Positions 1 to 57,136 of a stretch of 64,000 nucleotides of DNA are shown here, one piece after another. The translations under genes and the position numbers were made by a program. A model generated the notes under the pieces. That model ran no database searches and had not been told where the DNA came from. It worked only from the letters and a program-made list of their open reading frames with translations. Origin of the DNA: Myxococcota bacterium (GTDB lineage: Bacteria; Myxococcota_A; UBA796; CAJQPC01); contig DASCPX010000059.1 of assembly GCA_036012755.1 (NCBI GenBank), forward strand, positions 64,001 through 128,000, given 5' to 3'. Every line of letters begins with the position of its first letter. The stretch's first letter is position 1.

Positions 1-237
1 TTGGAGGACTGGGGCGTGGGCTGGGAGGCCGCCGGCTACGACGACGAGGACGACTTCCTCGGCTCATGCTCGACCTGGGCCTGGGAGATGCAGGTGCTCG
101 AGGACGACGCCGTCGAGCGAGGCGAGGCCACCGGCGGAGAGGTTGCCGCGATCTGCGCCGAGCGTCGCGCGTTGTTCGAGTCGGAAGACGCGACCTGCCA
201 GACCTACACGGACCTGGAGTGGGGGGCCCCGTGGTGA
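1..237 (+). CDS. Hypothetical acidic, Cys-containing protein (5' partial)
   Basis: Open frame from the window edge with GC-biased codon usage; its TGA overlaps the ATG of the next gene (TGATG at 235-239). Confidence 0.6.
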   Translation: MEDWGVGWEAAGYDDEDDFLGSCSTWAWEMQVLEDDAVERGEATGGEVAAICAERRALFESEDATCQTYTDLEWGAPW

Positions 238-1724
238 TGCTCGTCTTGCTGGGCTGCGGGACCCCTGAGGTCGAGGGGGACTTCGTCTTCCTCCGCGACG
301 CCATCTTCGTCGACGGCGAGGTCGTCCCCACCAGCTGGAGCCCAGGCCAGCAGCTCGAGCACGAGGGCCGCGTGGCGACGGCACCCCACCGCGCCGAGTG
401 CATCACGCTGTTCGGCGTGGGGCTCGGCGACGTCTCGCGGGAGGTGGCGATGGGGCTCCCCGCACCCGACACCGCCCTGGCGTTTTCACCAGACGGCTCC
501 TTGCTCGCCGTGGGCTCCTACCGGGGCGAGGTGCTCGTGCTGGACGGCTGGACCGGCGAGGTCGTCGCGGACAAGCAGCTCTCCGAGACCATGGTGAAGT
601 TCGTCGCCTGGAGCGCCGACGGCCAGACCCTCTACGCCGCGGAGCAGTCCCCCGACGCCTTCGTGCACGCCTTCGATCCCAGGACCCTGGAGGTGCGCTG
701 GAGCTTCCGCGTCGCCGACGAGGTCGAGAGCTCTCCGCTCCCACCCGCAGAGGAGAAGTACGGGGTCTACGATCTCCCGGCGGCCTTTGGCATGGCGGCG
801 CTGCATGACGGCGGCCTCGTGATGACCGCGATGCACGGCTGGAACACCCCCGAGGGGCGTCGCAACGCCTCCAGGGTGCTGCGTCTCGACGCTGACGGGA
901 AGCTCGTCGACGCCTGGCCGGAAGCGGGGGTCGCCGACGCCACCTTCAAGCACCCCCGGGTGGACCTCGAGGGGGACCGCATCGTCTTCGCCGTCCATCG
1001 CACGGCGAGCGGAGAAGCCCCGACGGACCTGCCCATCGGCGGAATCCAGGTGCTGTCGCTCTCTGGGCTGGAGCCCGTGGTCTCGGTCATCGCCCCGGCG
1101 CTGGAGCCCTGGTACGACACGCCCTTCGTCTGGGAGGCCCTGGATGTCGACGGCGACGCGGTCTTCATGGGTTTTGGTGACGGGCGCGTCCTGCTCTTCG
1201 GCCAGGACGGCACCGAGCGGCTCGCGCTGACCCCGGGCACGCCGATCCTCTCTGGCGAGGTCCCCATCGCGGCGAGCGTCGGCTACGGCCAGTTCGCCGG
1301 GGACTTGCTGATCTTCCAGACGAGCACGACCCTGATCCCCTGGGGCGCCGCCTCGCCGGAGCTGCGGCCTCCGAGCACCCACCCCCGCGAGAACGCGCTG
1401 TGGGTCCACGACCTCGACGGCGAGCTATCCTGGACCTGGACCGGCGAGCAGGAGCTGGCGGGCCTCACGGTCCTTGGCGACACCCTCGTCGCGGGCGCCG
1501 GCCCCCGGAGCTCGGACAGCCGGGCGGATCTCTACGGGGCGCTGATCTTCGAGCTCTCCGGCGAGGGCTCGGGAGACGAGCGCCTCCGCGCCTTCTGCCC
1601 CACAGAGGGCCCCGCCTTCTTCCGGCAGACCCTCACAGAGGACGGACGCGTCGCGGTGACCGAGTTCCCCTACGCCGATGAAGGCGGCCAACACGGCACC
1701 TATCGGGTGACCGTGCTCCGCTGA
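237..1724 (+). CDS. WD40/beta-propeller lipoprotein
   Basis: Start MLVLLGC (lipobox) coupled to the upstream stop; WD40-like blades LAFSPDGSLLAVG and VAWSADGQTLYAA. Confidence 0.8.
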   Translation: MLVLLGCGTPEVEGDFVFLRDAIFVDGEVVPTSWSPGQQLEHEGRVATAPHRAECITLFGVGLGDVSREVAMGLPAPDTALAFSPDGSLLAVGSYRGEVLVLDGWTGEVVADKQLSETMVKFVAWSADGQTLYAAEQSPDAFVHAFDPRTLEVRWSFRVADEVESSPLPPAEEKYGVYDLPAAFGMAALHDGGLVMTAMHGWNTPEGRRNASRVLRLDADGKLVDAWPEAGVADATFKHPRVDLEGDRIVFAVHRTASGEAPTDLPIGGIQVLSLSGLEPVVSVIAPALEPWYDTPFVWEALDVDGDAVFMGFGDGRVLLFGQDGTERLALTPGTPILSGEVPIAASVGYGQFAGDLLIFQTSTTLIPWGAASPELRPPSTHPRENALWVHDLDGELSWTWTGEQELAGLTVLGDTLVAGAGPRSSDSRADLYGALIFELSGEGSGDERLRAFCPTEGPAFFRQTLTEDGRVAVTEFPYADEGGQHGTYRVTVLR

Positions 1725-3452
1725 GTGCTGGCCCTCCTGCTGGCCTGTGCCGCCGAGCGTATCGAGCCCGAGGTGCGGGTCGACCTTGGCGGCGTCGAGG
1801 TGGTCGGGAGGGACATCGAGCGCGTCGAGGTGGTCGATCCCCAGGGCGTGCCCCTCGCCGCCCAGCGGGCCCCAGCGGCGCTGGAGCAGATGCGGGTCAG
1901 CGTCCCGTGGCAGGAGGGCGGGACCCACGAGGTGATCGTCCGAGACGAGGCCGGGACGCACTCGATCGAAGTCGAACTCCCTCACGAGCGGCCCGTCTAC
2001 ACCATCGAGGTCCAGGCCCCGCTCGGCCAGGCCCAGGTCGAGGTCGGCGACGGCGAGGTCATCAGCGTGCCGCTGATCGGCGGGCGCCCGGCAGAGGTCG
2101 GCGTCTTCGCCCGAGCCTGGGAAGAGGTCGTCATCGAGACCCGCTTCGGTGGCGAGGACCCCGAGACCCACGACCTGCGACCGGGGGAGCGAGCGGTGTT
2201 GGTGCGAGCCCTGACCGAGGAGGTCGAGGTCGTCGTGGGAGAGGTCGGCTTCGTCCTGGAGCCGACGCACAGCTCGGTGGAAGACGCCGCCGCGCTGCTC
2301 CACGTCGAAGAGGTCGTCTTCCCAGCAGAACCCAGCGGTCACGCGGATCCGGCGAGGGTCCGCGACCGGGTGGCGCTGCCCTCTCACTGGTGGCGCTCGG
2401 TGCTGAGGTCTACGGGCCTGGGTTTCCGGCCTCGGGACGAGTTCGCCGTCTACGCCTGGCAGGCGGTCCACCTGCGAAACGACGGCGAGGACGCCATCAA
2501 CGTCGTGCTCGAGGCCCGCGTCGTGGACGAAGAGGGCGACTACGCACCGGCCTTCAGGCCTCGCATGAGGGCGGGGGACGATGGCAGCGGGCGAGTCCGG
2601 GCGCTGATGCGGGTGCCCCCGGGCTCCAGCGCCGTCGGCACACTCCCGCTCTACGTCGACGAGGATCTGCTGGGCATGGACGAGGTGCGCTCCAAGAGCT
2701 GGACCGCCGAGATCGCCGTCATCCCCCTGGGCGCGAGCGAGGCCGTCACGGTCCACCGGCGACCGATCCACGCCTCTCGAGGCTCCTCGACCGCCTCGCT
2801 GGGCCTGCTCGCCGCGCTGGTGGCCGCCGTGCTCGGCACCGGCCTGCTGGTCACCCGCGGACGCCGATGGCTCCAGGACTTCCAGACCTCCGAGCTCATG
2901 ACCATCGCGCTCTTCGGGGCGCTCTCGTTCCTGGTGGGCGCCGCTGGACGCTTGCTCAGCACCGGAGTGGCCACGCTGCTGGGGCCTTTTTCGCCCTTCC
3001 TCACCGGCCTCGTCGACGACGCCTTCCGCTACACGCTCATCGCCACGCTCCTGGTGTTGCTGCCGCGGGTCGGGGTGGCCTCTCTGGCCGTGATCGTGAG
3101 CTGGATGCTGTCGGGGCTGATGCTCGGCACCTTCCAGGTGACGGACCTGTTGTTCGTCGGCGGTCGGGTCTTCTGGCTCGAGGGCTTCCTGTGGCTGGCT
3201 GGCATCACCCGCCAGAGCGGCTGGCTGGACGAGGTCCCTTGGAGGCGATGGCTGCGCCTGAGCTTCGGGCTCGGGCTGGCCTCTGCCTTCACCAGCGCCA
3301 CCGGCGTGGTGCTGATGGTGACGCTGTATCGGCTCTTCCTGGCGGACTGGTTCGTCATCGCGCTGGTCTCCGGCCCCGGCTTCCTCTACGTGGTCCTCGC
3401 CTGCCTGATCGCCGTGCCCTTCGCGGACTCCCTGCGGAGGATCCAGCGGTGA
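1725..3452 (+). CDS. Lipoprotein with large extracytoplasmic domain fused to a C-terminal ECF S-component-like membrane domain
   Basis: MLALLLAC start; about 350 aa soluble region, then about 7 hydrophobic helices beginning FQTSELMTIALFGAL (S-component-like); lies directly upstream of ecfA and ecfT. Confidence 0.65.
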   Translation: MLALLLACAAERIEPEVRVDLGGVEVVGRDIERVEVVDPQGVPLAAQRAPAALEQMRVSVPWQEGGTHEVIVRDEAGTHSIEVELPHERPVYTIEVQAPLGQAQVEVGDGEVISVPLIGGRPAEVGVFARAWEEVVIETRFGGEDPETHDLRPGERAVLVRALTEEVEVVVGEVGFVLEPTHSSVEDAAALLHVEEVVFPAEPSGHADPARVRDRVALPSHWWRSVLRSTGLGFRPRDEFAVYAWQAVHLRNDGEDAINVVLEARVVDEEGDYAPAFRPRMRAGDDGSGRVRALMRVPPGSSAVGTLPLYVDEDLLGMDEVRSKSWTAEIAVIPLGASEAVTVHRRPIHASRGSSTASLGLLAALVAAVLGTGLLVTRGRRWLQDFQTSELMTIALFGALSFLVGAAGRLLSTGVATLLGPFSPFLTGLVDDAFRYTLIATLLVLLPRVGVASLAVIVSWMLSGLMLGTFQVTDLLFVGGRVFWLEGFLWLAGITRQSGWLDEVPWRRWLRLSFGLGLASAFTSATGVVLMVTLYRLFLADWFVIALVSGPGFLYVVLACLIAVPFADSLRRIQR

Positions 3453-12249: not shown

Positions 12250-13694
12250 CCCCGCACAGAGTCCGGATCCTCGCCCGCAAGTTCGGGCTCAGGGAGCGCC
12301 TGCCAGAGGCCTGCGAGGCCGAGGCGGACTCCTTGTCGGTCGACCTCGGCGGACTCGAGGATCTGTCGCACCTGCCCTTCGTCACGATCGACGAGCCGCA
12401 CAGCAAGGACCTCGACCAGGCGCTCTACGTCGAGTCTCGAGAGCCCGGCTGGGTCGCCTGGTATGCCATCGCGGACGCTGCCTTCTTCGTCCATCCGGAC
12501 TCGGCGCTGTTTGCGGAGGCCCTCCGCCGGGGCGCCACCTACTACCTCCCCGGGCTCATGGTTCCGATGCTGCCTCGCCGCCTCTGCGAGGACCTCGTCT
12601 CCATCAACCCGCAGGTGGAACGGCGCGCGCTGGTCTTTCGGATGGAGGTCGCTGCGGACGGCACGGCCACCGCGACCCGCGTCTGCAGGGCACACGTGCG
12701 CTCGAGAGCCAAGCTCCACTACGACGGCGTCCAGGCTTTCCTGGACGGCCGCAGCGAGTCCGGCTGCGCCGAGGCCGAGGACTCCTTGCGCAGCCTGGTC
12801 GACTTCGGGGAGGCGCGCCTGGCCCACGCCGAAGGGCGTGACGTCGTGCACTTCCATCGGCGCGAGTTGGAGCTCTGTGTTGGGGGCCAGCACCTCCACG
12901 TCTTCGCCCGAGAGGACCCGCGCAACGACGTCGAGCGGTACAACGAGCAGCTCAGCTTGCTGGCAAACATCGAGGGCGCTCGCCTGCTGGCGACCGCGCA
13001 CGACGCCTGGGTCCAGCCGGTCTTTCGGACCCACGACCCGCCGGCGCCGGAGCGGCTGATGACGCTGAGACGACAGCTTGGGATCATCACGGCGGCCCGG
13101 CCCGACCTCGCCTGGGACCGGGGAGAGAGCCTCGCGGCGTACATCCGCCGGCTGCCTGACGAGCCCATGTCGCAGGTCATCTCCCGGCAGGTGATGCGAG
13201 CGGGCGGAAGGAGTGGTTTCTCGGCCGAGCCCGGCGTTCACCATGGAGTGGGCGCCGACGTGTACGCGCGCTTCACGGCGCCGATGCGCGAGGTGGTGGG
13301 CGTCTTCGTTCACAAGGAGATGTGGGAGCTCCTCGCTGGCGGCGGCCGGGTCGACCCCGAGGTGCAGGCGGCGGTGATCCGTGCCGCGAGCAGAGCCAAG
13401 TCCCTCCAGCGGCGTCTCGACGGGGCCTGTGAGCGTATTGCGCTCGACCGGCTCTTCGAGACCCGGAGCCACTTCGAGGCCATCGTCATGGGCCTGGGAA
13501 AGGGCAGGCTCCACCTCCAGCTCCTCGACCCTCCGCTCGACGTCAAGCTCTACCTCCGCGATCTCCCGGGTGCCCGCGCCGCTGGGATCCGTTTGCGGCG
13601 CGACGGCGAGGAGATCTGCCGCCTCGGTGACGTCGTGACGGTCTGTGTCCAGGGACTGGACGAGCGAAGGAACCGATGGGTCCTTGGGCTCTGA
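12246..13694 (+). CDS. RNB-domain exoribonuclease (RNase II/R family)
   Basis: FVTIDEPHSKDLDQA, AIADAA, RRGATYYLP..VPMLP, YARFTAPMR; TTG start overlaps the previous stop. Confidence 0.9.
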   Translation: MTPHRVRILARKFGLRERLPEACEAEADSLSVDLGGLEDLSHLPFVTIDEPHSKDLDQALYVESREPGWVAWYAIADAAFFVHPDSALFAEALRRGATYYLPGLMVPMLPRRLCEDLVSINPQVERRALVFRMEVAADGTATATRVCRAHVRSRAKLHYDGVQAFLDGRSESGCAEAEDSLRSLVDFGEARLAHAEGRDVVHFHRRELELCVGGQHLHVFAREDPRNDVERYNEQLSLLANIEGARLLATAHDAWVQPVFRTHDPPAPERLMTLRRQLGIITAARPDLAWDRGESLAAYIRRLPDEPMSQVISRQVMRAGGRSGFSAEPGVHHGVGADVYARFTAPMREVVGVFVHKEMWELLAGGGRVDPEVQAAVIRAASRAKSLQRRLDGACERIALDRLFETRSHFEAIVMGLGKGRLHLQLLDPPLDVKLYLRDLPGARAAGIRLRRDGEEICRLGDVVTVCVQGLDERRNRWVLGL

Positions 13695-14386
13695 TCCTGT
13701 CCTGCGGCTCCGAGCCGCCGTGGAGAGAGGCCCTCGACGCGCCCCCGGCTGAGGCGCTGGCGGCCTGCCGCATGCTCGAGGGCAACGCCGCCGAAGAGTG
13801 CGCCTTCGGGGTGCTGAAGACCAACGACCTCGTGGACGAGGTCGCCTGCGAGGCGCTGGCCGAGGGACCCTACCGGAACGAGTGCCGGTTCATGGTGGCG
13901 GAGGAGCTCGCAGAGGCCGGCTCCCACAACGCGGCGGCCCGGAAGTGTCGCCAGACCGGCCCGTTCGAGCGCAGCTGCCTCCAGCACGGTTGGTTCCGGG
14001 CAGCGGACCAGGCGCTCCTGGTCTCGGGACCCCAGGGGTCGAACCCGGAGGTCGAGGAGATCATCTCCACCGCCGTGGCGGCTTATGGCGCGGGCCTCGG
14101 CGATCCGGAGGGCGTCGTCTGGGCCGCATACTGGTGGGCGTGGTGGGAGGGCAGGCCCCAGGTCGTGCTCGCCGCGTGCCCGGACGAGCGCTGCCGTGCG
14201 GCCAGCCTGACCGCTGCCGCGCGCTATGGATGGATCGCCGGCTGCGAGGGCGACGCCACGGCGAAGTGCGCCGAGGAGGCGGACTGCCTGGCGGCGGTCG
14301 CGCTCGGCAAGGAGCTCGCCTGCCAGGGCATGGAGCGGCCAGGCACTCCGGTCTTCCGCCGGGACGGCGTCAGAAACGAACGCTGA
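13676..14386 (+). CDS. Cys-rich lipoprotein
   Basis: MGPWALILSC lipobox; repeated C-x(n)-C helical spacing. Confidence 0.65.
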   Translation: MGPWALILSCGSEPPWREALDAPPAEALAACRMLEGNAAEECAFGVLKTNDLVDEVACEALAEGPYRNECRFMVAEELAEAGSHNAAARKCRQTGPFERSCLQHGWFRAADQALLVSGPQGSNPEVEEIISTAVAAYGAGLGDPEGVVWAAYWWAWWEGRPQVVLAACPDERCRAASLTAAARYGWIAGCEGDATAKCAEEADCLAAVALGKELACQGMERPGTPVFRRDGVRNER

Positions 14387-15105: not shown

Positions 15106-15993
15106 ATGTACGTCGTCTTGCTGCTGTCCTGCACCGAGCCTGGGGACCTCGACTACACCCTCCCACCCGAGGAGGAGGACGACTCCAGCGTCGCCGAGTC
15201 GGCCCCCCCGGACAGCGATGACCTTGGAGATCCATGCGCCTACGAGGCCGGCGTCCAGAAGGGCACGGTGGAGAGCGCCGAGCTCGGCGAGATCTCCGGG
15301 CTCGCCCCGATGCAGGACTACGTCTGGGTCCACAACGACAGCGACAACGAAGGGCTGATGTACGCGATGGAGGTGGATGGGAGCCATGTGGGCACGGCCT
15401 GGATCGAAGACTACCTCTTGATCGACCCAGAGGACTCCGCTCGAGGCGACGGCAAGCTCTACCTGGGCGACATCGGCGACAACGGGGAGAACCGCGAGTT
15501 CATCCGCGTCTTCCGCTTCCCTGAGCCGGAACCCGACTTCGCGGTCGGCCAGCTCGAGTCCTTCCACATCACCTACCCCGACGGCCCCCACGACGCGGAG
15601 GCGATGGCCGTGGACAAGGACGGCTCGCTCTTCATCATCACCAAGTCTGCCAGCGGTGACAGCGGCATCTACAAGCTCGCGGCCCCGCTCACAGACGGCG
15701 AGCTGGAGAAGGTCGGCAGCCTCACCGTCGGATCGGGCGATCTGCCAGGCGGAACCGGGGTGACCTCGGCAGACGCAGACGACACGCGGGTCGTGCTGAG
15801 GACATACACCCACCTCTTTCTCTGGCCGCGTCTGGGCCGCACGTTGGACGAAGCCATCTCCACGCCGCCCGCCTGCAGCATCGACATCGAGTCCGAGCCA
15901 CAGGGCGAGGCCGTCGCGCTCAACAAGGCCGGCTTCTTGACGGTCAGCGAGGGCGAGAACCAGCCGATCTGGTTCTACAAGAAGAGCGACTAG
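15106..15993 (+). CDS. Beta-propeller lipoprotein (SdiA-regulated/phytase-like)
   Basis: MYVVLLLSC lipobox; EISGL, WVHNDS, DPED, LYLGDIGDN, DAEAM, PQGEAV motifs. Confidence 0.75.
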   Translation: MYVVLLLSCTEPGDLDYTLPPEEEDDSSVAESAPPDSDDLGDPCAYEAGVQKGTVESAELGEISGLAPMQDYVWVHNDSDNEGLMYAMEVDGSHVGTAWIEDYLLIDPEDSARGDGKLYLGDIGDNGENREFIRVFRFPEPEPDFAVGQLESFHITYPDGPHDAEAMAVDKDGSLFIITKSASGDSGIYKLAAPLTDGELEKVGSLTVGSGDLPGGTGVTSADADDTRVVLRTYTHLFLWPRLGRTLDEAISTPPACSIDIESEPQGEAVALNKAGFLTVSEGENQPIWFYKKSD

Positions 15994-23938: not shown

Positions 23939-24020
23939 GGGATCAGCGGCTCCCGACTCCGAGCTGGCTTTCGATTTCGAGGTTGCCGATCTGAGTGCCA
24001 GGGCGGATGATCACGCCGCC

Positions 24021-25997
24021 ATGCTACTCGCGCTCCTCACCCTCGCCTGCCGCAACAAGGACCCCCTCGACACCGGAGGCGTCATCGACAGCTCGCCGCC
24101 CGAGGCCGTCGACGCGGACGCCGACAACTACGACGCGGACGAAGACTGCGACGACCACAACGACACGGTCTACCCGGGCGCCGAAGAGGTCCCCTACGAC
24201 GGCCTCGACAACGACTGCGACCCGGAGACCCCCGACGATGACCTCGACGGCGACGGCTTCGGCGAGGCCGAGGACTGCGACGACACCGACGCGGCGGTGA
24301 ACCCGGATGCGACGGAGGCGTGCAACGGCCTCGACGACGACTGCGACGGCGAGGTCGACGACGCGGCGGGCGACCTCTGGTACTCCGACGCCGACGAGGA
24401 CGGCTACGGCGACCCGGACACCGAGACCCGGAGCTGCGACGGCGAGACAGGCCAGGTGGCCGATGGCACGGACTGCGACGACACCGACGCCAGCTCCTTC
24501 CCAGGCGGTGAGGAGGTCTGCGACGAAGCAGACAACAACTGTGACGGCACGGTCGACGAGGGGGTGCAGACCACTTTCTACGTCGACGTGGACGGTGACG
24601 GCGAGGGCAGCACCGACGGCACGGCCGAGGCCTGTGACACTCCGACGGGCTACGCCGACAACGCTGACGACTGCGACGACGGCGACGCGTCGATCTCGAC
24701 TCATGCCACCGAGCTCTGCGACGGGGTCGACAACGACTGCGACGGGGACATCGACGAGGACGACGCCGCCGACGCCACCACCTGGTACGAAGACGGCGAC
24801 AGCGACAGCTACGGCAACCCGGACAGCACGACCGACAGCTGCGAGCAGCCCAGCGGGTACGTCGACAACGACGACGACTGCGACGACACCGACGCCGATC
24901 TCAACCCGGAGACGACCTGGTACCTGGACGCCGACGGAGACGGCTACGGTCGCAGCGACATCACCTTGGAGAGCTGCGAGCAGCCCAAGAACTACGTCGA
25001 CGACGACACCGACTGCGACGACACCTCAGAGGACGTCTCCCCGGAGGGGACCGAGATCTGCAACTCGGGGGTCGACGACGACTGCAACGGCGTGGCCGAC
25101 GACGACGACAGCGGCGTGACCGACCCCGAGACCTGGTACGCGGACAGCGACAGCGACGGCTACGGCGACTCCAGCTCCACCGACGAGGCCTGCGAGCAGC
25201 CCAGCGGGTACGTCGAGGACGACACCGACTGCGACGACACGGCGGACGACGTGAACCCTGGCGCCGACGAGGAGTGCGACGCCACCGATCACGACTGCGA
25301 CGGGGACGACGGGCTGGAGACCTGCGAGGACTGCAACGCCATCCTCACGGCGGACTCGACCTCCACCGACGGGGTCTACACCATCGACCTCGACGGCACG
25401 GGGACCTCGGGCTTCGAGGTCTACTGCGACATGACCCTCGACGGGGGCGGCTGGACGCTGTGGTGGTGGTACGAGGGCGGTGCCGGCATGAGCGCCGTCA
25501 CCGACGTGCTCGGAGAAGAGGAGCTCTGGGACTGCGACCCCTCCAGCGACACGAGCTGCTTCTCGACCCTGCCGGTGTCCAGCCCCTCGGAGCTGATGGT
25601 CACGAACCAGGCCGGGAACTGGGCCGTGTGGGAGTTCGACTCCGGCAACGACACTTCCAACAACATCCTCGGCGCCTTCACGAGCCAGACCACGGTGACG
25701 CGCTCGACCTCGTCGGCTTGCGGTGACGCCTGGAATCCGGTGGCCCAGGACGGCACGATGACGGACGACCCCTACACCTGCGACGAGAACAACAACTCCG
25801 ATCCCGGCTGCGACTGCTTCTGGTACGACAGCTACAGCGGGGTCTACAGCTTCTACCTCGACGACGACACGGGCTGGGCCGAGACCGCCTTCGGGGCCGG
25901 CTACGACAACTCCGGAACCCTGGGAGTGGACAGCCTCGAGACGAGCTATCGGTACCACTCGACGACCAGCTACGACCTCTGGATGTACTGGCGCTGA
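24021..25997 (+). CDS. Lipoprotein with many MopE-like (putative metal-binding) Cys/Asp repeats and a C-terminal fibrinogen-like domain
   Basis: MLLALLTLAC; repeats DCDD..x..PGA.E.C.G.D.DCDG and WY.D.D.DGYG; C-terminal DGVYTID...VYCDMTLDGGGWTL. Confidence 0.85.
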   Translation: MLLALLTLACRNKDPLDTGGVIDSSPPEAVDADADNYDADEDCDDHNDTVYPGAEEVPYDGLDNDCDPETPDDDLDGDGFGEAEDCDDTDAAVNPDATEACNGLDDDCDGEVDDAAGDLWYSDADEDGYGDPDTETRSCDGETGQVADGTDCDDTDASSFPGGEEVCDEADNNCDGTVDEGVQTTFYVDVDGDGEGSTDGTAEACDTPTGYADNADDCDDGDASISTHATELCDGVDNDCDGDIDEDDAADATTWYEDGDSDSYGNPDSTTDSCEQPSGYVDNDDDCDDTDADLNPETTWYLDADGDGYGRSDITLESCEQPKNYVDDDTDCDDTSEDVSPEGTEICNSGVDDDCNGVADDDDSGVTDPETWYADSDSDGYGDSSSTDEACEQPSGYVEDDTDCDDTADDVNPGADEECDATDHDCDGDDGLETCEDCNAILTADSTSTDGVYTIDLDGTGTSGFEVYCDMTLDGGGWTLWWWYEGGAGMSAVTDVLGEEELWDCDPSSDTSCFSTLPVSSPSELMVTNQAGNWAVWEFDSGNDTSNNILGAFTSQTTVTRSTSSACGDAWNPVAQDGTMTDDPYTCDENNNSDPGCDCFWYDSYSGVYSFYLDDDTGWAETAFGAGYDNSGTLGVDSLETSYRYHSTTSYDLWMYWR

Positions 25998-26009
25998 CCG
26001 GGACGGACC

Positions 26010-26468
26010 GTGCTCTTGATGCTGCTGGCCTGCGAAGCTGGCGATGACACGGGGAGCGACCCTTGCGCTCCGGGCGGAGAGCCGACACTGCGGATCGGCG
26101 TCGGCGAGGTCACCTTCGAGGAGGTGCCAGACGGCGACGTGGAGCTCATCCACGGGCCGCAGGGGGGCTACCACGTCGTGTTGGCGCTCGAGGCCACGCA
26201 CTTCGACCAGGACGAGCAGCTCCTGGGCGTGCTCAGCGGAACCGTCGGTGGCGAGGAACTCGCCCACACGGAGCCCTTCGTGACCCTGCGCTGCAACCCG
26301 ACGGCGGAGGCGCAGCAGGTCTGGAACCTCTTCCTGATCATCGACGAGGATCTGGGGCCAGAGGACGTGCACGGAAGCACCATGGAGGTGCTGGCCTCGC
26401 TCTCGGGCGCATCGACGAGCGCTGAGGCCGAGGCTGAGATCCTTGTGAACTACCCAGATCTGGAGTGA
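26010..26468 (+). CDS. Hypothetical lipoprotein
   Basis: MLLMLLAC; motif LIHGPQGGYHV. Confidence 0.75.
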   Translation: MLLMLLACEAGDDTGSDPCAPGGEPTLRIGVGEVTFEEVPDGDVELIHGPQGGYHVVLALEATHFDQDEQLLGVLSGTVGGEELAHTEPFVTLRCNPTAEAQQVWNLFLIIDEDLGPEDVHGSTMEVLASLSGASTSAEAEAEILVNYPDLE

Positions 26469-26522
26469 ATCCGGTACCCTTGGCGGGCACGGCCCGAGGA
26501 TGGGGATTCGCGGGAGGGCCAC

Positions 26523-26918
26523 TTGGTCCGATCGAACTGGAGCCTGGGTGACACGGTCCGCCGCTGCGGGCCGCTGACGCTGCACGAGGCCACCCGATCG
26601 GGTCGGCTCGCTGGTCACGCCTGGCGCTGCCGCGGACCCAAGAAGCTGCGGGAGCTCTTCATGAGCCGCAGCAGTGTCCTCGGCGAGGCAGCCGTTGCGG
26701 GGCTCCGCGTCTCCACGAAGGTGAGCACGACGAACAAGGGCTCCCCCTTCCGGATCGACGCGCTCCCCGCCGGAGCTCCAGCCCTCGTCTGCCTGGAGGA
26801 TGTCCGCTTCGATGACGAGGACATCCGGGAGATCCTGGGGCGAGCGGCGCTGACCCTCCGCGATCTCCACGACGTCGGGAGGGCGCCCCGTAGTCGCCGA
26901 GACCCCACTGGCCGGTGA
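26523..26918 (+). pseudogene. Possible degenerate Ser/Thr kinase N-terminal remnant
   Basis: ILGRAALTLRDLHDVG resembles kinase helix E, but the frame loses coding character where HRD would follow. Confidence 0.3.
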
Positions 26919-27026
26919 CTTCGGTACCCCAGGGGTCGCGAACGACTGCAACTGACACCAGCCCGGATCACAGGCTGGTGGATGCGCCCATGGTGATCGT
27001 GCTCCGTACACACACGCGGAGGTGCG

Positions 27027-27639
27027 ATGAGCGCGCGCGAACAGCTGGTCGAACACACGACCCGAGGTGGGGTCCCCCACCTGCGCTTCGCCGATATGGA
27101 GGTCCCGAAGCTGGGACCCGTGGTCGAAGAGGACATCCCCCACTTCGCGAAGATCCTGGGAGAAGACGAGGCCCGCCAGCGGCTCGCCGCGTCGCTGGCG
27201 CGCCAGGCCGCCTTCGCTGGTCGCTTCCACCTGGACGACACCACGGCCCGCACCCTGTTGCGTGTCGTGAAGCCCACCGGACGAAGGTCACGACCTCGTG
27301 CTGGTGATCACCGATGGCTACCCCCGCAGCTCCCGCGTCCGCTTCTTCGCCAAGCCGACCCGCTTCTCCAGCACCAACGACAGCGGAGAGCAGACCGGAG
27401 AGAGCCTCAAGAGCGGGAGGGTCTCCCTGTGGCAGACCCAGGAGGACGAGACCCGCGACGTCGCGAGGGCCCTCGAGGCGCTCGAGGATCCCTCGCGTAC
27501 GGTGCTCGGCATCGGCATCGGGGTCGACGCGCCCGTCGACGAGTTCTTCGAGCACGCTCACGCATACGCGGACCACGAGGCCTTCGCGGAGGGCTTCCCG
27601 GCCCTGTTGGAGAGCGCCCTGTCCGAGCTCTTCCTCTAG
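27027..27639 (+). pseudogene. vWA-domain (CobT/NorD-like) protein with large internal deletion
   Basis: GGAGG RBS and ATG 27027, about 85 codons, then a frame change near 27285 to LVLVITDGYP...VLGIGIG (vWA C-terminal half); the MIDAS DxSxS motif is missing. Confidence 0.6.
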
Positions 27640-27664
27640 TCCGAGCTCTTCCTCTAGTCCGAGC
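27621..27664. repeat. 18-bp tandem duplication GTCCGAGCTCTTCCTCTA x2 plus 8-bp partial copy
   Basis: Exact copies at 27621-27638 and 27639-27656, duplicating the gene 3' end and stop codon. Confidence 0.95.
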
Positions 27665-27864
27665 GCGATCGAGAAGTGCGCGTCCGACGGACGGTGCGCG
27701 AGGGGGTGTCACCCGCGTCGAGCAGTCCGTTGTCGTTGAGGACCACCACCAGCGAGTAGCCGACAAGGGCTATGCCAGGGCTGAGGGCCCCGGATCGCCA
27801 TCCTCGGCGGACAAGCTGTCGATCGTGTGCAGATCGGCCCTCGGTATCCGACAGGCTGACAGGG

Positions 27865-28401: not shown

Positions 28402-28443
28402 GGCCTTCGCTAACGCGCTCCGTAGTGGGCGTCGGAGGCAGTC

Positions 28444-30253: not shown

Positions 30254-31130
30254 GCAACAGCAGCAAGGATCCGCCTGCCCCTCCGCCGCAGCCCTCGCAG
30301 CTCTCTCCGCCGGGGCCGTCGGTGTCACCCCCGTCGCAGAAACCGTCGTCCTCGGCGTCATGGAGGTCGGGCTTTCCGTCGCAGTCGCTGTCCTCGCGGC
30401 AGGACTCCTCGCCGTCCAAGAGGCCGTCGTCGTCGGTGTCGCGGTCGCGCGGGTCCGAGCCCAGCACCAGCTCCTCCGAGCGGGACAGGCCGTCGATGTC
30501 GAAGTCCACGGCGAAGGCATCCGACCAGGATCCGTCGAGCTCGTGGAGACCATCGAGATCGCTGCCGCTCCCGAGATCGGAGGTCAGCCGCTCCATCTCC
30601 GGGTCGTCGCCGGTCACGGGGAGCACGCAGAACACCCACTGGTCGTCGACGCCCTCGAAGTGTCCGTAGAGGTCGGCGACGGGAAAGGCCAGGTCGATGA
30701 AGTAGTCGGTGTCGCCGCGAAAGGTGGTCTCGGCCTCGACCGTGCGCCAGGCGTCGCTGTAGGTCTCGGCCACCTCGAGGGAGACGTCCGCGCCCTCGGT
30801 GTCCTCGTCTGCGAGGAGGAACGCCGCGCTGCCGTCTGAGCTCGCCGCGAGCACCGCCTCCACGTCCGCCGTGTCCGCGTTCAGCTCGAAGGCCAGGCCT
30901 CAGGCGCCCTCGGCGGCGGTGGGATCCTCGTTCAGCCGCACCCGCCACCAGAGCGTCGTGCCGTCAGAGGCCCACTGCAGCATCGAGTCGTCCACGCTGC
31001 CGACGAGGTCGAGGGCCCGGTCGCCGTCCTGGTCCTCGAAGGTGTCGGTCATGCCCTCTTCGTCGAGGGTGACCGGCACCCAGTCGCTGTCCGCTGGCCA
31101 GGCCAGGGCCGCGCTGACTAGAGCAAGCAT
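30198..31130 (-). pseudogene. Secreted acidic protein with MYXO-CTERM-like tail, interrupted by one in-frame TGA
   Basis: MLALVSAALA-WP leader; EGA-TGA(30900-30902)-GLAFELNAD continues in the same frame to DTDDDGLLDGEE and a GCGG-hydrophobic-RRRR tail. Confidence 0.7.
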
Positions 31131-32058
31131 TCCTCGAAGGGCTCCTCGCCGTCGAGGCTCACGTAGAAGCACTCGTCACAGCTCTCGTCTGCGTCGTAGT
31201 CGACCAGCGCGTGGCGCTTGCCCTGGAACTGGGCCTCGCCGGTGTAGGGCGACTCGGCGTCGCAGTCCGGCTCGACGTGGAGCTGCCCGAAGTGACAGTA
31301 GCTGCCGATGTACACGCTGTAGGCGTTGGCGTCGAGATCCGCGAAGCCCTCCCACTCGACGTAGTCGATGACGTAGTCCCCGTCGCGGTCCTCGTAGGTG
31401 TAGTCGACCTGGCGGTAGCCCAGGAACTCGGACAGATCCAGGGGTGGCGTGCCTTTGAACCAGCGCATCTCCTCGAGATCCTGGGAGACGCTGTAGTCCA
31501 CTCCATCCGTCACATAGAGCGCCAGGTCCCCGTTCGCGGTGTACTCCAGGCTGTGGCTGCCCGCGTCGCCTTCGAAGGAGCCGTAGACCTCGAAGTTCGA
31601 GTAGGACACGGTCAGCGGGTCCGAGCTGGCGTCCACGAACAGGGTGCCCCCCCACTCGACGCCGGTCTTGTCCGTGCAGCCGCCGACGAGCTCCGCGGTC
31701 TCGTCTCCGTAGGTGACCACGGGACAGTCGTAGAGGTGGCCGTGGGTCTCCGCGAGGTCGATGAGGTAGCTGTGCCAGTGCAGCTCGCCGAGGCCGCTCA
31801 TGTAGAGCGCGATCGGCATCGCCTTGGACATGCCCATCGGGTAGTCGACGTCCTCTCCACAGTCGAGGTAGGGCACGTCTGTGTCAGCGTCGGCGTCGGT
31901 GTCGGCGTCTGAGTCAGCGTCCGTGTCGGCGTCGGAGTCAGCGTCGGAGTCGGCGTCGGTGTCGCTGTCGCTGTCGCTGTCGGCGTCAGCCTCGAGCCCG
32001 CTGTCGACCGGGTACTCGCCGACCGGCTTTTGCTCCAGACAAGCCAGCAGCAGCAGGC

Positions 32059-32062
<4 letters not shown>
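31118..32062 (-). CDS. Lipoprotein with (DA/DS/DT)n low-complexity linker
   Basis: MSLLLLAC; DADSDSDSDTDADSD tract; ATGA overlap with the upstream gene. Confidence 0.8.
31876..31990 (-). repeat. 6-bp-period coding repeat encoding an Asp-X dipeptide tract
   Basis: GTCGGC/GTCGCT/GTCAGC units on the + strand. Confidence 0.85.
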
Positions 32063-33460
<1,398 letters not shown>

Positions 33461-33476
33461 CGGCCGGACGCCCGGT

Positions 33477-34172
33477 CTACTCGCAGAAGTCCCCGAGCGA
33501 GGCGCCGTCCACCGACCAGGCGCTGCAGCCGTCGCAGGGGCCGTCGAAGTCGAAGGCCACCACGCGCTCGCCTTCGAGCTGGAGGAGGCCGCGCACAGGC
33601 TCGGACTCGCAGTCGGCGAGGTCGATGGTCCAGGTGCCTTCGACCTCCAGGGGGCCGAGCTCCGGGGTGGCCAGGGTGCCGCTGACGAGGACCTCGTCCC
33701 GGTCGTAGCGGCTGAGGATGGTCCAGGAAAGATCGACCTGGACCGGATCGGCGCAGTCTCCCCAGCCCTCGCCACCCAGGAGCGAGCCGCAGAGGGTGGC
33801 GGCCATCTCGATCGTGGCGAACTCCTCGTCGACGAGGTGCTCCAAGGCGCCGTCCATGCGGAAGGCTTGCCCCTGGTCGATGACGGCGAGGCGGCGGACC
33901 TCCATCCAGGCCATCGAGGGGTCTTCATAGCGATCGACGTTGCCGAGGTGCTCTCCGCCCGGGCATGCGCCCCAGACCTCGCGCAGCCCGTCACCGTCCT
34001 CGAAGGCCTCGACCGGGCAGGCGGGCTGGTCGACGCGACGGGTCACCCCATCGAGCAGTGCCAGAGCCGCGTCGGGGCGGGACAGCTCCAGGACCTTGGC
34101 CACAGCAGCCTCGTCGAGGGCAGGAGCGCTCTCGATCGGGACGCCGGGGGCACAGGCAAGCAGGAGGAGCAT
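33477..34172 (-). CDS. Hypothetical lipoprotein
   Basis: MLLLLAC; Cys pattern (CP..C, C..EP..G, FDG..CDGC) similar to the 31118-32062 lipoprotein. Confidence 0.7.
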   Translation of the reverse strand: MLLLLACAPGVPIESAPALDEAAVAKVLELSRPDAALALLDGVTRRVDQPACPVEAFEDGDGLREVWGACPGGEHLGNVDRYEDPSMAWMEVRRLAVIDQGQAFRMDGALEHLVDEEFATIEMAATLCGSLLGGEGWGDCADPVQVDLSWTILSRYDRDEVLVSGTLATPELGPLEVEGTWTIDLADCESEPVRGLLQLEGERVVAFDFDGPCDGCSAWSVDGASLGDFCE

Positions 34173-35895: not shown

Positions 35896-35966
35896 CAGCT
35901 CACTCCATTTGGCGGGCGGCTTAACCCGTTGGAAATCGTTAGGTGGCGCTCCTCGTAGAGGTACCC

Positions 35967-36539
35967 GTGCCCCGCAAATACACCATCTTCGCCCTTGTCA
36001 GCGTCGTGGTCGTCACCCTCGATCAGCTGACGAAGTGGTGGGTCCGCACCCACCTGGAGCTTTGGCGCGACAGCGTCGACGTGATCCCGGGCTTCTTCGA
36101 GCTGGTCCATTACCAGAACACGGGCGCCGCCTTCGGGGTGATGCAGGACGACCCGGACGCGATGACCAAGTTCGCGGTCTTCACCCTGGTCGCGCTGACC
36201 ATCATGCTGGTGATGGTCTGGCGCCTGCCGAAGGAGGAGTCCTTCGTCGCCGGCATCATGGGGCTCATCATGGGCGGGGCCGTCGGCAACGCCATCGACC
36301 GGGCTGTCTTCGCCGCCGTCACCGACTTCCTGCGCTTCTACACCGACGCCGAGGCAGCCAGCGTCTGGCTCCGCGAGAACTTCGGCAGCGCGGAGTGGCC
36401 GAGCTTCAACATCGCCGACTCGGCCATCGTGGTCGGCATCATCGTCTTCTTCGTCCAGCAGATCGTGATGGGCCGAAGAGAGAAGGACGCGGACCTCGAC
36501 GACGAGGAGCTGCCCAGCCTCGAGGACGTCCCCGAGTGA
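35967..36539 (+). CDS. lspA: Signal peptidase II, copy 1
   Basis: LDQLTK, NTGAAFG, GNAIDR, VTDF, FNIAD; GAGG before GTG. Confidence 0.93.
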   Translation: MPRKYTIFALVSVVVVTLDQLTKWWVRTHLELWRDSVDVIPGFFELVHYQNTGAAFGVMQDDPDAMTKFAVFTLVALTIMLVMVWRLPKEESFVAGIMGLIMGGAVGNAIDRAVFAAVTDFLRFYTDAEAASVWLRENFGSAEWPSFNIADSAIVVGIIVFFVQQIVMGRREKDADLDDEELPSLEDVPE

Positions 36540-36549
36540 GGCCGACACC

Positions 36550-37071
36550 GTGAGGACCCGCGTGTTCGTTGGCCTCGCTGCCGTGTCGGTGGTCCTGGAC
36601 CAGTTGACCAAGATCCTCGTCCGCCAGCAGATCCTGCTGGGCGAGCGCGGCCAGACCGTCATCCAGGGTCTCTTCGACATCGTGCACGTGGAGAACTCCG
36701 GCGCCGCCTTTGGCCTGCTCGCCGGCTACGACTGGGCGATCTGGGTCTTCGTTCCCTTCACGCTGATCGCCGTCATCGTGCTGATCTCGTTGCTGCGGGA
36801 GTGCAACCCGGCGGCCCGCTTCATGCCTGCCGCGCTCGGGCTCATCCTCGGCGGGGCGCTCGGCAACTTCGTCGACCGGGTCTGGAGGCAGTCGGTGACG
36901 GACTTCCTCAGGATCTACCAGGACACCGGCCCACTCTACGACTGGCTCGTCGCCAGCTTCGGCACAGCGGAGTACCCCAGCTTCAACGTCGCCGACATGA
37001 GCATCTGCGTGGGCGTGGCGATGTTCGTCGTCCACGAGCTGACCTGGGGCAGGAGGAAGCGAAAAGACTGA
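36550..37071 (+). CDS. lspA: Signal peptidase II, copy 2
   Basis: LDQLTK, NSGAAFG, GNFVDR, VTDF, FNVAD. Confidence 0.93.
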   Translation: MRTRVFVGLAAVSVVLDQLTKILVRQQILLGERGQTVIQGLFDIVHVENSGAAFGLLAGYDWAIWVFVPFTLIAVIVLISLLRECNPAARFMPAALGLILGGALGNFVDRVWRQSVTDFLRIYQDTGPLYDWLVASFGTAEYPSFNVADMSICVGVAMFVVHELTWGRRKRKD

Positions 37072-37841
37072 TGCACCCCGTCCTCTTCCACATCGGTGAC
37101 TTCGCCGTTCACAGCTACGGCGTGCTCATCGCGCTGGGCACGGTGCTCGCCGTGGCGATCGGTACTCGCTGGTCGAAGGCGGAGGGCTTCCCGAAGGACA
37201 CCTTCACCGATCTCGGCTTCTGGTCGATCGCCGCGGCGGTCGTCGGAGCTCGCCTGGAGTACCTCCGCACGAACTGGCACCAGTTCGACGACGCCGGGAT
37301 CGGCGCGATGCTCAACGTGCGCGACGGGGGCCTGGTCTTCTACGGCGGGCTGGTCGGCACGCTCATCGCCTTCGGGGTCATCACCTGGCGCCGCAAGCTG
37401 AACCCGCTCAAGCTCCTCGACATCCTCGCCCCGCTGGTGCCCTTCGGCATCATGTTCGGGCGCACGGGCTGCCTCATGTCCGGCTGCTGCTACGGCAAGC
37501 CCACATCCGCCGCCTGGGCAGTGACCTTCACCCACGAGCTGAGCGTCGCCCCGAAGGGCATCCCGCTCCACCCGACGCAGGTCTACGAGGTGATCTACGG
37601 CTTGGGGCTCTTCGGCCTGTTGTACTGGCTCAAGGGCCGGAAGAAGTTCGATGGCCAGCTGATGCTGACGCTGTTGACCGTCTACCCGCTGTTGCGCTCG
37701 GTCAACGAGCTCTTCCGAGGGGACCCGGGCCGCGGGTGGGCCATCGAGGGGCTGCTGTCGAACGCGCAGGCCATCAGCATCGGGGTCGCGATCGTCGCGG
37801 CCATCGGCTGGGTGGTCCTGCTCCGTCGCGAGAAGGCCTGA
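37071..37841 (+). CDS. lgt: Prolipoprotein diacylglyceryl transferase, copy 1
   Basis: MHPVLF, HSYG, GARL, GGLVFYGG, GRTGC..GCCYG, HPTQVYE, ELFRGD. Confidence 0.93.
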   Translation: MHPVLFHIGDFAVHSYGVLIALGTVLAVAIGTRWSKAEGFPKDTFTDLGFWSIAAAVVGARLEYLRTNWHQFDDAGIGAMLNVRDGGLVFYGGLVGTLIAFGVITWRRKLNPLKLLDILAPLVPFGIMFGRTGCLMSGCCYGKPTSAAWAVTFTHELSVAPKGIPLHPTQVYEVIYGLGLFGLLYWLKGRKKFDGQLMLTLLTVYPLLRSVNELFRGDPGRGWAIEGLLSNAQAISIGVAIVAAIGWVVLLRREKA

Positions 37842-37853
37842 GTAGGCGCGGCG

Positions 37854-38645
37854 ATGCATCCGGTGCTCTTCGAACTCGGACCCTTGACGCTCCACAGCTA
37901 CGGCGCTGGGGTAGGCACCGCCCTGTTGTTGGGTATGTGGACCGCTTCGAAGCTGACGGAGGGCGACCCGCGCTGGGCAAAGGACTTCTTCTGGTTCGCG
38001 GCGCTGTTGACGGTGCCGTTGGCCCTGCTCGGAGCGCGGCTGGAGTACGTGCGCCAGCACTGGAGCGAGGGCTTCGGAGAGGACCTTGCGTCCATCTTCA
38101 TGATCACGGACGGTGGCGTGGTGTTCCACGGCGGGCTCGTCGGCGGGGCGATCGGCCTGGCGCTGGCCGTCTGGCTCAAGAAGGCCCCGCTGCTCCCGAC
38201 CCTGGACGCTGCCGCAGTGACTGTCGGCTACGGGCTCGTCTTCGCGCGGCTCGGATGCTTCGGGGCCGGCTGCTGCTACGGCGACGCCACCGACCTGCCC
38301 TGGGGAGTCGTCTTCTCCCACCCCGACTCGATCGCCCCGGGAGACCTGGCCCGCCACCCGACCCAGCTCTATGCGGCGATCTTCGGCGCCATCCTCGGGC
38401 CGGTGCTGACCTTGAAGTTCCTCCGGAGGCGCTTCGACGGACAGGTCGCGGTCACGCTCGGCGTGCTCTACCCGGTCTTCCGCATCGTCAACGAGATCCT
38501 CCGCGGTGACGGCGAGCGCGGGTGGCTCATCGAGGGGGTGCTCACACCGGCCCAGGGCTTCTCCTTGGCGGCGGTGGCGCTGTCGCTGACGGCGGGGTTC
38601 GTGCTGGCACGTCGAGCCAGCTCGTCCAGCCCGAGCCCGGGATGA
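37854..38645 (+). CDS. lgt: Prolipoprotein diacylglyceryl transferase, copy 2
   Basis: MHPVLF, HSYG, GGVVFHGG, ARLGC..GCCYG, HPTQLYA, EILRGD. Confidence 0.9.
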   Translation: MHPVLFELGPLTLHSYGAGVGTALLLGMWTASKLTEGDPRWAKDFFWFAALLTVPLALLGARLEYVRQHWSEGFGEDLASIFMITDGGVVFHGGLVGGAIGLALAVWLKKAPLLPTLDAAAVTVGYGLVFARLGCFGAGCCYGDATDLPWGVVFSHPDSIAPGDLARHPTQLYAAIFGAILGPVLTLKFLRRRFDGQVAVTLGVLYPVFRIVNEILRGDGERGWLIEGVLTPAQGFSLAAVALSLTAGFVLARRASSSSPSPG

Positions 38646-51890: not shown

Positions 51891-51892
51891 TC

Positions 51893-56039: not shown

Positions 56040-56086
56040 GCGCTCGCCACCGACGAAGTCTGCGGCGACGACTGAGTCAAGACGCG

Positions 56087-56116: not shown

Positions 56117-56134
56117 CGAACAGCGCCGGGAGTC

Positions 56135-57136
56135 CTAAGGCGCTTCGTACTTCTCGAAGCGCCACGCGCCCTCGAGCAGCGAGGCGTTGCCGTGGGTGTC
56201 GAGGAGGTAGTCATCGTCGAGTGCGTCGACCACGTCGTTCTCGACGAACTCCAGGCCTGCGACGCACCAGCCGGTGTTCTGGGCGTGCCAGTCGTTGCCG
56301 ACCGTGCAGGGGTTCAGGTCGCCGAACTCCGGTCCGCTGTTGTTCCACTCGGCCCAGAAGTACGGAATCGCCGTGTTGGCCTGCGCGGCGATCTCCGGGC
56401 GGGTGCCCTGGAGGCCCTGGAAGCTCATGCCCTGGTCCGAGCTGGCCGCTACGAAGCCGTCGATGTAGACGTCGACGGTGCCGGAGAGGTCCAGGCCGAC
56501 TCGCACCATGCGGCCCCAGCCGTTGGTGTCGAGCTCGGCAGAGAAGGACTCGCCCCAGTCGTCGGTGGCTTCTACGAAGAGGGACTCACCGTCGCCGCCG
56601 AGCCAGATGATCACTTCGGTGCCACCGCCGCGAGCGTAGAAGGCCTCGATGCCCGCGCTGCGGTGGGTGGGCACCAGCGCCATCTCGAAGCGCAGGTTGC
56701 GCCCGTCGCCGAACTGGCTCGGCTGAAGCACGTTCTCGCGGTCGAGACCGACCATCATCAGGCCGGCTGGCTCTGCCGGCAGGACCGGGACCTTCATGGT
56801 GCCGGAGGTGACCTCGCCGGCGGAGGCGACGATCTGGATGGTCTCTCCGGGCTGGACGAGAGCCACCGACTCGGTGATCTCGACCTCGACGTGACGGCTG
56901 AAGGCGTCGAGCTCCTGGTTGTCGTAGAGCTCTTCGAACTCGGTGCCGTCGCGAGCACGGCCGCTCACGACGATCGAGAGGGCAGCGGTGTCAGCGTCAC
57001 CGTTGACCTCGCCGCACTCGATCCAGGCCGACTGGCCGCTGGTGTAGCTCTCCGGTGGCCAGCATTGGATGACGGGCAAGTTGTTGATATCGTTGTCCTT
57101 GCAGGACGTGCACGCGGCAAGCACCAAGACGAGCAT
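56135..57136 (-). CDS. Lipoprotein, possible LamG-like C-terminal domain
   Basis: MLVLVLAAC; G.VDVYIDG and LLEGAWRFE resemble LamG strands. Confidence 0.6.
   Translation of the reverse strand: MLVLVLAACTSCKDNDINNLPVIQCWPPESYTSGQSAWIECGEVNGDADTAALSIVVSGRARDGTEFEELYDNQELDAFSRHVEVEITESVALVQPGETIQIVASAGEVTSGTMKVPVLPAEPAGLMMVGLDRENVLQPSQFGDGRNLRFEMALVPTHRSAGIEAFYARGGGTEVIIWLGGDGESLFVEATDDWGESFSAELDTNGWGRMVRVGLDLSGTVDVYIDGFVAASSDQGMSFQGLQGTRPEIAAQANTAIPYFWAEWNNSGPEFGDLNPCTVGNDWHAQNTGWCVAGLEFVENDVVDALDDDYLLDTHGNASLLEGAWRFEKYEAP

Follow-up and report, generated by a model that had tools for sequence, protein, structure and literature searches.

The stretch of DNA considered here, hereafter the window, comprises 64,000 nucleotides (positions 64001-128000 of contig DASCPX010000059.1) from a Myxococcota bacterium, whose assembly (GCA_036012755.1, here G000) totals 6.73 Mb in 250 contigs with a GC content of 69%. 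Ten genes in the window, named below by their start positions, begin with a very short apolar leader that ends in a lipobox cysteine, and four further genes encode two copies each of LspA (signal peptidase II) and Lgt (Table 1). The initial annotation had read the ten leaders as lipoprotein signals without a basic n-region, and all ten strings were found in the DNA, six on the plus strand and four on the minus strand. K, R, D and E are absent before the cysteine in every case, so that none of the ten has the positively charged n-region (K or R) of an ordinary signal peptide. The residue at -1 is Ala, Gly or Ser in all ten, as in a lipobox, the residue at -2 is Leu in nine, and a hydrophobic h-region of 4-8 residues is present, with the cysteine at residues 7-10. 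The start codon is ATG in eight leaders and GTG in two (1725 and 26010). Judged by sequence, these leaders have the lipobox and the hydrophobic core of a lipoprotein signal but neither its n-region nor its usual length, and they are not textbook members of that family.

In-frame stops, base composition, initiation signals and orthologues all point to these short leaders as true N-termini rather than mis-called ones. Specifically, in six of the ten genes (1725, 26010, 32062, 13676, 57136 and 24021) an upstream in-frame stop is followed by no ATG, GTG or TTG before the short start, which excludes a longer leader from any canonical codon. At 1725 and 26010, as had been stated from the outset, the GTG lies 0 and four codons, respectively, after an in-frame TGA; this TGA is that of the preceding gene (1722-1727 and 25995-26012), suggesting translational coupling. 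The other four frames are open upstream and contain alternative starts at 66 (gene 237), 15031 and 15046 (gene 15106), 32805 (gene 32715) and 34214 (gene 34172). In these four, the G+C content at third codon positions (GC3) is 0.56-0.70 upstream of the short start and 0.77-0.95 downstream, compared with about 0.85-0.93 for genes of this genome; in gene 237, for example, it is 0.56-0.60 upstream of the ATG and 0.95 downstream. The upstream values thus resemble those of non-coding DNA. In three of the four (15106, 32715 and 34172) a TANNNT hexamer resembling a -10 box is found at -13.

Table 1. Short-leader genes and lipoprotein-processing genes of the window (a slash marks the predicted cleavage site)
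Feature	Leader	Coordinates	Strand	Remarks
Lipoprotein gene	MLVLLG/C	237..1724	+	Cys residue 7; weak WD40/beta-propeller matches; frame open upstream
Lipoprotein gene	(GTG)M-LALLLA/C	1725..3452	+	Cys residue 8; TGA directly 5' of GTG
Lipoprotein gene	MGPWALILS/C	13676..14386	+	Stop 15 codons upstream; AAGGA at -9..-5
Lipoprotein gene	MYVVLLLS/C	15106..15993	+	TAGGCT at -13..-8; GC3 0.60 upstream vs 0.88 downstream
Lipoprotein gene	MLLALLTLA/C	24021..25997	+	Stop 32 codons upstream; five MopE-type metal-binding repeats, PF11617 E 6.8e-41; Fibrinogen_C match
Lipoprotein gene	(GTG)M-LLMLLA/C	26010..26468	+	TGA 4 codons upstream; G007 homologue 48.9% identical
Lipoprotein gene	MSLLLLA/C	31118..32062	-	Stop 10 codons upstream; GAAGG at -9..-5; leader followed by Asp-rich low-complexity tether
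Lipoprotein gene	MLILALLA/C	32059..32715	-	TATCCT at -13..-8; alternative GTG 32805 in open frame
Lipoprotein gene	MLLLLA/C	33477..34172	-	TAGACT at -13..-8; directly downstream of ETF-QO
Lipoprotein gene	MLVLVLAA/C	56135..57136	-	Stop 23 codons upstream; GGAG at -12..-9
lspA copy 1 (signal peptidase II)		35943..36539	+	PF01252 E 3.1e-37; GN.IDR and FNIAD kept vs S. aureus LspA 6ryo
lspA copy 2		36550..37071	+	PF01252 E 3.4e-37; GNFVDR and FNVAD kept
lgt copy A		37071..37838	+	PF01790 E 2.2e-58, profile positions 1-239/240; 73% identical to G002 copy
lgt copy B		37854..38645	+	PF01790 E 9.3e-48, positions 1-236/240; 60% identical to second G002 copy

The leaders of the window are not isolated cases. 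Genome-wide counts were based on stop-to-stop open reading frames (ORFs) of at least 100 codons with GC3 > 0.8 and GC3 > GC1 > GC2, a set of 5,392 ORFs, of which 5,309 lie away from contig ends. In 697 ORFs a hydrophobic lipobox lay no more than 120 codons from the upstream stop, and 388 of them (56%) have their first canonical start past that stop fewer than 12 residues ahead of the cysteine, placing the latter at residues 6-12. Counting the Met, leaders of 5, 6, 7, 8, 9, 10 and 11 residues were found in 4, 58, 135, 86, 57, 27 and 21 ORFs, respectively, seven residues before the cysteine being the commonest length. Among the other 309 lipobox ORFs, 220 could additionally start at a canonical codon 5-11 residues ahead of the cysteine (ATG in 134), forming an ambiguous class, and only 76 are classical-only, several of them resembling signals of the twin-arginine translocation (Tat) type with an RR motif. 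The filter recovered nine of the ten window genes together with one evident false ORF (29133, minus strand), which fell in the ambiguous class. The short form may thus account for about 600 genes, against at most 76 for the textbook form, and on these predicted genes the short uncharged leader is the default form for lipobox genes in this genome. Its 388 representatives consist of 46% Leu and 18% Ala, with charged residues making up 0.7% (19 of 2,627, of which 11 are K or R). Twin-arginine-like leaders (e.g. MTRREMLAASLSGAFLVAC and MNRRRLLQGLSALPIVGC) are normal in length and charge, and the shortening seems to spare signals of the Tat type.

That the motif exceeds chance expectation across the genome, as the initial annotation required, is borne out by several counts. 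Of 19,199 start codons lying close to the beginning of an ORF, 795 (4.1%) are followed by a short leader, as compared with 501 of 88,571 in ORF interiors (0.57%). The pattern ATG(NTN)4GSNTGY (hereafter M+4) occurs 50 times, and replacing TGY by GAY, CGY or AGY leaves 1, 1 and 5 occurrences; the corresponding figures for ATG(NTN)5GSNTGY (M+5) are 48 and 3, 0 and 0. No matches were obtained with either leader pattern reversed.

The sequences preceding the short starts contain a second regularity. In the 30 bases 5' of the 388 starts, T, A, G and G are enriched at -12 to -9, a peak that we had first read as a Shine-Dalgarno (SD) sequence with an embedded stop; the -10 hexamer of leaderless genes fits better. 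What led to this reading was an excess of in-frame stops exactly three codons upstream, found in 82 of the 388 short-leader genes (63 of them TAG) and in 449 of 3,862 other ORFs, versus about 170 at neighbouring distances. The motif TANNNT reaches its maximum at -12 (65 of 387), with 19 at -13, 8 at -14 and 0-10 at the other offsets scanned. Taking -12 and -13 together, it precedes 84 of the 388 short-leader genes, the short start of 26 of the 220 ambiguous genes and 256 of 3,860 other ORFs, the respective numbers at control offsets being 2, 1 and 15. The hexamer, often TAGNNT, lies 12-13 bases before the start and in many cases creates an in-frame TAG three codons upstream. SD-like motifs are present in 18% of the TANNNT class, in 51% of the remaining short-leader genes and in 26% of interior control sites. 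PMC3160421 describes TANNNT, located some 12 bp ahead of the start codon in high-GC bacteria, as the -10 box of leaderless genes, and PMC3898074, PMC4007540 and PMC12340547 are reported to deal with the same class. With its hexamer at a fixed distance and its paucity of SD sequences, the TANNNT class marks predicted leaderless genes; in these the start codon would also be the 5' end of the mRNA, leaving no upstream sequence to translate.

The pipeline used for this genome was also run on 400 kb from each of three relatives, and the lipobox ORFs unable to have a leader of at least 12 residues numbered 19 of 34 in G007 (same family, genus g6), a figure open to bias as its contigs were previously known from the M+4 match list, 5 of 27 in G003 (genus g2) and 0 of 10 in G185, which has 54% GC and belongs to a different family of the phylum. 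A tblastn search of the 388 proteins against these samples and 400 kb of G002, a member of the same genus, yielded 77 pairs. The initial annotation had asked whether homologues lack N-terminal extensions. Within the genus they do: G002 orthologues have uncharged leaders of 6-10 residues, bounded by stops at different nearby places, and the orthologue of gene 1725, for example, which is 56.5% identical over 575 amino acids, has its stop three codons upstream rather than 0. Orthologues at a greater distance in many cases begin with M-R and have leaders of 12-22 residues. For example, MLLLILALTSC in this genome corresponds to MRWTSSSVVTCSLLVLGLALGGC in the G003 orthologue, and MLLFAIAC to MAIRLVLILLLSGC in that of G185. 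Syntenic orthologues of gene 32715 begin MKG(R/V)YLPL..AAC in G004 and G011, and MRALLLLAALGC in G015. For gene 34172, a stop precedes the aligned start by six codons in the G012 orthologue, and that of G003 begins MTILPVLLLAC.

Gene 1725 allowed comparison with proteins called by other pipelines, as 75 relatives were present in a public protein collection, labelled as Proteobacteria, Myxococcota (about 50% identity), Pseudomonadota, Alphaproteobacteria bacterium or Cognaticolwellia sp. A lipobox occurs in the first 40 residues of 68 of them; the cysteine lies at position 13 or earlier in 44 (42 uncharged), and 22 have longer leaders with K or R. In an alignment of 50 homologues, the cysteine is invariant and the leader varies from 5 to 20 residues. 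The protein has no Pfam match. Its structural model (pLDDT 89.7) predicts an N-terminal helix of six residues, then beta-sandwich domains in tandem (about residues 16-352) and a C-terminal multi-pass helical membrane domain (355-574), and a fold search with this model returned only generic tandem beta-sandwich matches with query-normalised TM-scores of at most 0.20. If the model is correct, the protein would combine a lipid-anchor lipobox with transmembrane helices, which is unusual.

The processing enzymes encoded in the window appear complete. Both LspA copies have the PF01252 domain and, when aligned to 6ryo, the motifs GN.(I/V)DR and FN(I/V)AD, whose Asp residues we take to be the catalytic ones, and both Lgt copies match PF01790 over nearly its full length. 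The four genes are consecutive (lspA-lspA-lgt-lgt, 35943-38645, plus strand), the ATG of lgt copy A overlapping the stop of the second lspA by one base; lgt copy A was skipped by the GC3 filter. Similar pairs occur in relatives both with and without short leaders. Elsewhere in the genome there are one Lnt and two LolA matches. No match to MlaA (PF04333) or BamE (PF04355) was obtained in the genome.

The proposal in the initial annotation that altered Sec/SRP recognition or specialised Lgt and LspA underlie the short leaders found no support in SecY or in the lspA and lgt copies. Duplication of the processing genes was considered as a sign of specialisation and rejected: two lspA matches are present in G003, G004, G011, G016 and G020, and two lgt matches in G020, all of them relatives without the trait, and according to PMC8048626 Myxococcus xanthus has four lsp genes, so the duplication does not point to specialisation. 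SecY is highly conserved across 19 genomes of the family, including an identical GIMPYISASII block, presumably the plug region, and its surroundings. As a candidate for the adapted part it was likewise dismissed: four columns separated trait-plus from trait-minus genera with our first grouping and 5-6 with the corrected one, and in the 19 genomes the comparison stands at 5 columns, whereas 6 were obtained with a comparable partition likewise cutting across the tree, so there is no SecY signal.

Several short-leader proteins have export-type content, among them those of gene 24021, with its MopE repeats, and of gene 1725, with its predicted tandem beta-sandwich ectodomain, and the shortening extends past lipoproteins. 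Six proteins match HlyD_D23, the adaptor of resistance-nodulation-division (RND) systems, of which three have short uncharged lipobox leaders (one being MLLFLLMLAC, with a stop five codons upstream), two have classical leaders and one has no visible N-terminus. An OmpA-domain lipoprotein begins VILVLTLVSQLAC. Signals of the signal peptidase (SPase) I type are equally short, as in the OmpA-domain proteins MLAVLLWIGVAEA/Q and MLQLLIGLAQA/Q and in the TolC-like OEP protein MLLLLSLAMA/D, and the shortening is therefore not special to lipoproteins. BamD has a short signal without a lipobox; the OmpA-domain, TolC-like OEP and BamD signals consist of 10-15 uncharged residues (C129:38469, C16:15438, C18:12904 and C149:39926 of this genome). 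In the lipobox proteins, the missing positive charge before the cysteine is accompanied by negative charge after it. The mean net charge of mature residues 1-20 is -3.10 in the 388 short-leader proteins, compared with -2.13 in the 76 classical-only ones (Mann-Whitney p 0.008) and -0.94 in interior 20-mers (p 2e-58), and these first 20 residues of the 388 contain 933 D and 674 E against 274 R and 129 K, an acidic tether being general in the set. The lipobox, the invariant cysteine, the content of the proteins and the complete set of Lgt, LspA, Lnt and LolA together suggest that the proteins are exported and lipidated. One window gene, 31118-32062 on the minus strand, has a long run of Asp-Ser, Asp-Thr and Asp-Ala 3' of the lipobox cysteine.

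We searched 301 genomes of the phylum with the two nucleotide patterns and found the trait confined to this order. Counts are given as M+4/M+5 per genome. In genus g1, the present genome had 50/48, G002 47/59 and G001, which is 73% complete, 20/46; in genus g4, G005 had 8/91 and G012 5/59, while G307 and G308, scanned with M+5 only, had 73 and 46; G003 of genus g2 had 1/27 and G007 of genus g6 had 34/13; and genera g3, g5, g7, g8 and g9 had 0-4/0-10. Family f7 of the same order also scored high (G288 10/41, G303 12/39, G219 11/35, G018 12/25 and G244 11/14), genus g24 of family f3 had 0-3/10-17, and the 257 genomes outside the order reached at most 12/7. A restriction of the strong form to genera g1 and g6, as the M+4 pattern alone had implied, was overturned by the M+5 counts in g4 (46-91) and f7 (14-41). 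The preferred leader length is narrow and genus-specific, M+5 greatly exceeding M+4 in g4 and f7, M+4 exceeding M+5 in g6 and the two being equal in g1, which hints at a limit on leader length imposed somewhere in the machinery, for which the SecY, lspA and lgt comparisons yielded no candidate. On a midpoint-rooted tree of SecY, a single gene, g1 adjoins g4 and G007 falls in the other clade of the family; thus the strong form is not monophyletic on that tree.

These data are best explained by short leaders that are real N-termini and that most likely act as Sec/SPase II signals reduced to 4-8 Leu-rich core residues and an L-L-[AGS]-C lipobox, a reading derived from the sequences to which we assign a probability of about 0.7. 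The very hydrophobic N-terminus would still be taken by the Sec route. The strongly acidic early mature region would offset the missing basic n-region, leaving the N-terminal flank the more positive side, and with this charge asymmetry preserved the hairpin could insert N-in/C-out. The N-terminus, uncharged and probably still formylated, may let the whole leader sink into the bilayer, so that the cysteine would reach the periplasm-facing sites of Lgt and LspA, and Lgt, LspA and Lnt would then act as usual. A core of this length could not reach across the membrane while a charged anchor stayed on the cytoplasmic face, which would explain why the leaders are at once short and uncharged.

Several observations weigh against this reading. 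No change in the machinery that follows the trait was found in the SecY columns or in the lspA and lgt duplications. Some 76 leaders of the classical or Tat type remain in the genome, so the usual form still works there. A look for RNA runs covering positions 24001-34000 of the window listed none. The gene set on which the counts depend came from a crude home-made GC3 filter and not from a gene caller. E. coli reportedly compensates lost n-region charge by a longer, not a shorter, hydrophobic core. Finally, the Leu at -2 in nine of the ten window leaders lies outside the [ASTVI] consensus quoted in PMC8048626.

Among the alternatives, the one that fares best accepts the N-termini as real but takes the Met-Leu...Cys segment as an uncleaved short membrane tag or as a substrate of a different insertion pathway, YidC-like or relying on a dedicated factor, or else supposes that only some of the proteins are lipidated. 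It gains from the two defining features that the leaders lack, a basic n-region and the usual cysteine position, and from the failure to find an adapted feature in Sec, Lgt or LspA, while the equally short SPase I-type substrates would place the change in targeting generally and not in the lipoprotein enzymes. We nevertheless regard it as unlikely: the cysteine is invariant and always preceded by Ala, Gly or Ser, ordinary M-R...lipobox orthologues align with it Cys to Cys, large beta-rich ectodomains need the translocon, and the full set of Lgt, LspA, Lnt and LolA is retained.

Alternatively, the starts may be mis-called, with translation beginning upstream through a non-canonical codon, a frameshift or read-through and supplying an ordinary n-region. 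An open frame with an upstream canonical start exists for four of the ten window genes and for 309 of the 697 lipobox ORFs, and one close homologue (P0002) was called with a 16-residue leader containing Arg. Against this, the stop lies directly before the start in 17 ORFs and one codon before it in 15; GC3 falls upstream of the short start; -10-like or SD-like signals are correctly spaced from it; and the upstream stops of orthologues differ in position. The bounding stops of the 388 are TGA in 224, TAG in 125 and TAA in 39, which leaves 263 closed off by a codon other than TAG, and reassignment of TAG, considered as an escape from the upstream stops, was rejected because TAG is an ordinary terminator here, ending 1,564 of the 5,392 ORFs; stop read-through is therefore no way out. 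This explanation is already largely refuted, and we consider it very improbable. The weakest alternative, that Met-Leu-Leu...Ala-Cys strings arise by chance from the CTG- and CTC-rich DNA of a 69% GC genome in which the GC-rich Leu and Ala codons are common, is refuted by the control codons in place of Cys (0-5 against 48-50) and the reversed pattern (0), by the lower scores of relatives of equal or higher GC content (e.g. G003, 72.7%), by the scores of at most 12 in the 257 genomes outside the order and by the sevenfold enrichment at ORF beginnings.

The reading of the leaders as minimal Sec/SPase II signals can be extended, though only tentatively, to the order as a whole: its export system may accept a charge-free, Leu-rich N-terminus of 6-9 residues as the default for most exported proteins, whether lipoproteins or substrates of SPase I, with a preferred length that is fixed to within one residue in each genus, and a component of the targeting or processing machinery may have co-evolved as a ruler.

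Compared with the canonical Sec/SPase II signal, of which E. coli Lpp is the type, the leaders are alike in being N-terminal, in their hydrophobic core and in the [AGS]-Cys junction, as well as in the unstructured tether rich in acidic residues, Pro, Gly and Ser after the cysteine and in the presence of Lgt, LspA, Lnt and LolA in the genome. They differ in having 6-9 residues before the cysteine instead of about 15-25, no basic residue, and a core of only 4-8 residues that is 46% Leu, with Leu at -2 in nine of ten. A precedent from 2007 is said to concern a lipobox cysteine lipidated without a textbook signal peptide, in a single protein said to be carried across the membrane by a Tat partner; the leaders described here belong to hundreds of unrelated proteins, for which no such carrier is evident. 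In E. coli, mutants with a charge-less n-region and prl suppressors (secY, secA and secE) reportedly show that export is possible with compensation or a relaxed translocon, and in these laboratory mutants export is said to be slowed and the compensating cores longer, whereas here the uncharged form is the wild-type default, the cores are shorter and SecY has no trait-linked change. Type IV pilin-like (SPase III) leaders also have fewer than ten residues, but there a short charged leader precedes a hydrophobic helix and is cut off before it, while in the present genes the leader consists of the hydrophobic stretch, with the lipobox cysteine at its end.

The PROSITE rule PS51257 requires K or R and a cysteine at about residues 15-35, although its lipobox set does include Leu at -2. 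A rule-based predictor that needs K or R and a cysteine at residue 15 or later must miss these leaders. The labelling rules given in the SignalP 6.0 preprint set the n-region at a minimum of two residues. We found no description of lineage-wide ultrashort uncharged lipoprotein signals in the literature, in which subscription journals were thinly covered.

If the leaders are indeed export signals, rule-based lipoprotein annotation of this lineage and its relatives would miss about 600 genes, roughly a tenth of the present genome. In nature, a signal for export and lipidation in bacteria could then be as short as about seven uncharged residues, and the basic n-region, long held to be a defining feature, would be dispensable for a whole proteome. 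These bacteria would then offer a natural system for studying the minimal needs of SecYEG, SecA and the signal recognition particle (SRP), of Lgt and of LspA, and the leaders could serve as very short secretion or lipidation tags in protein engineering. Should the export system of the order also prove to accept such N-termini by default, they would be the shortest natural Sec signals in proteome-wide use.

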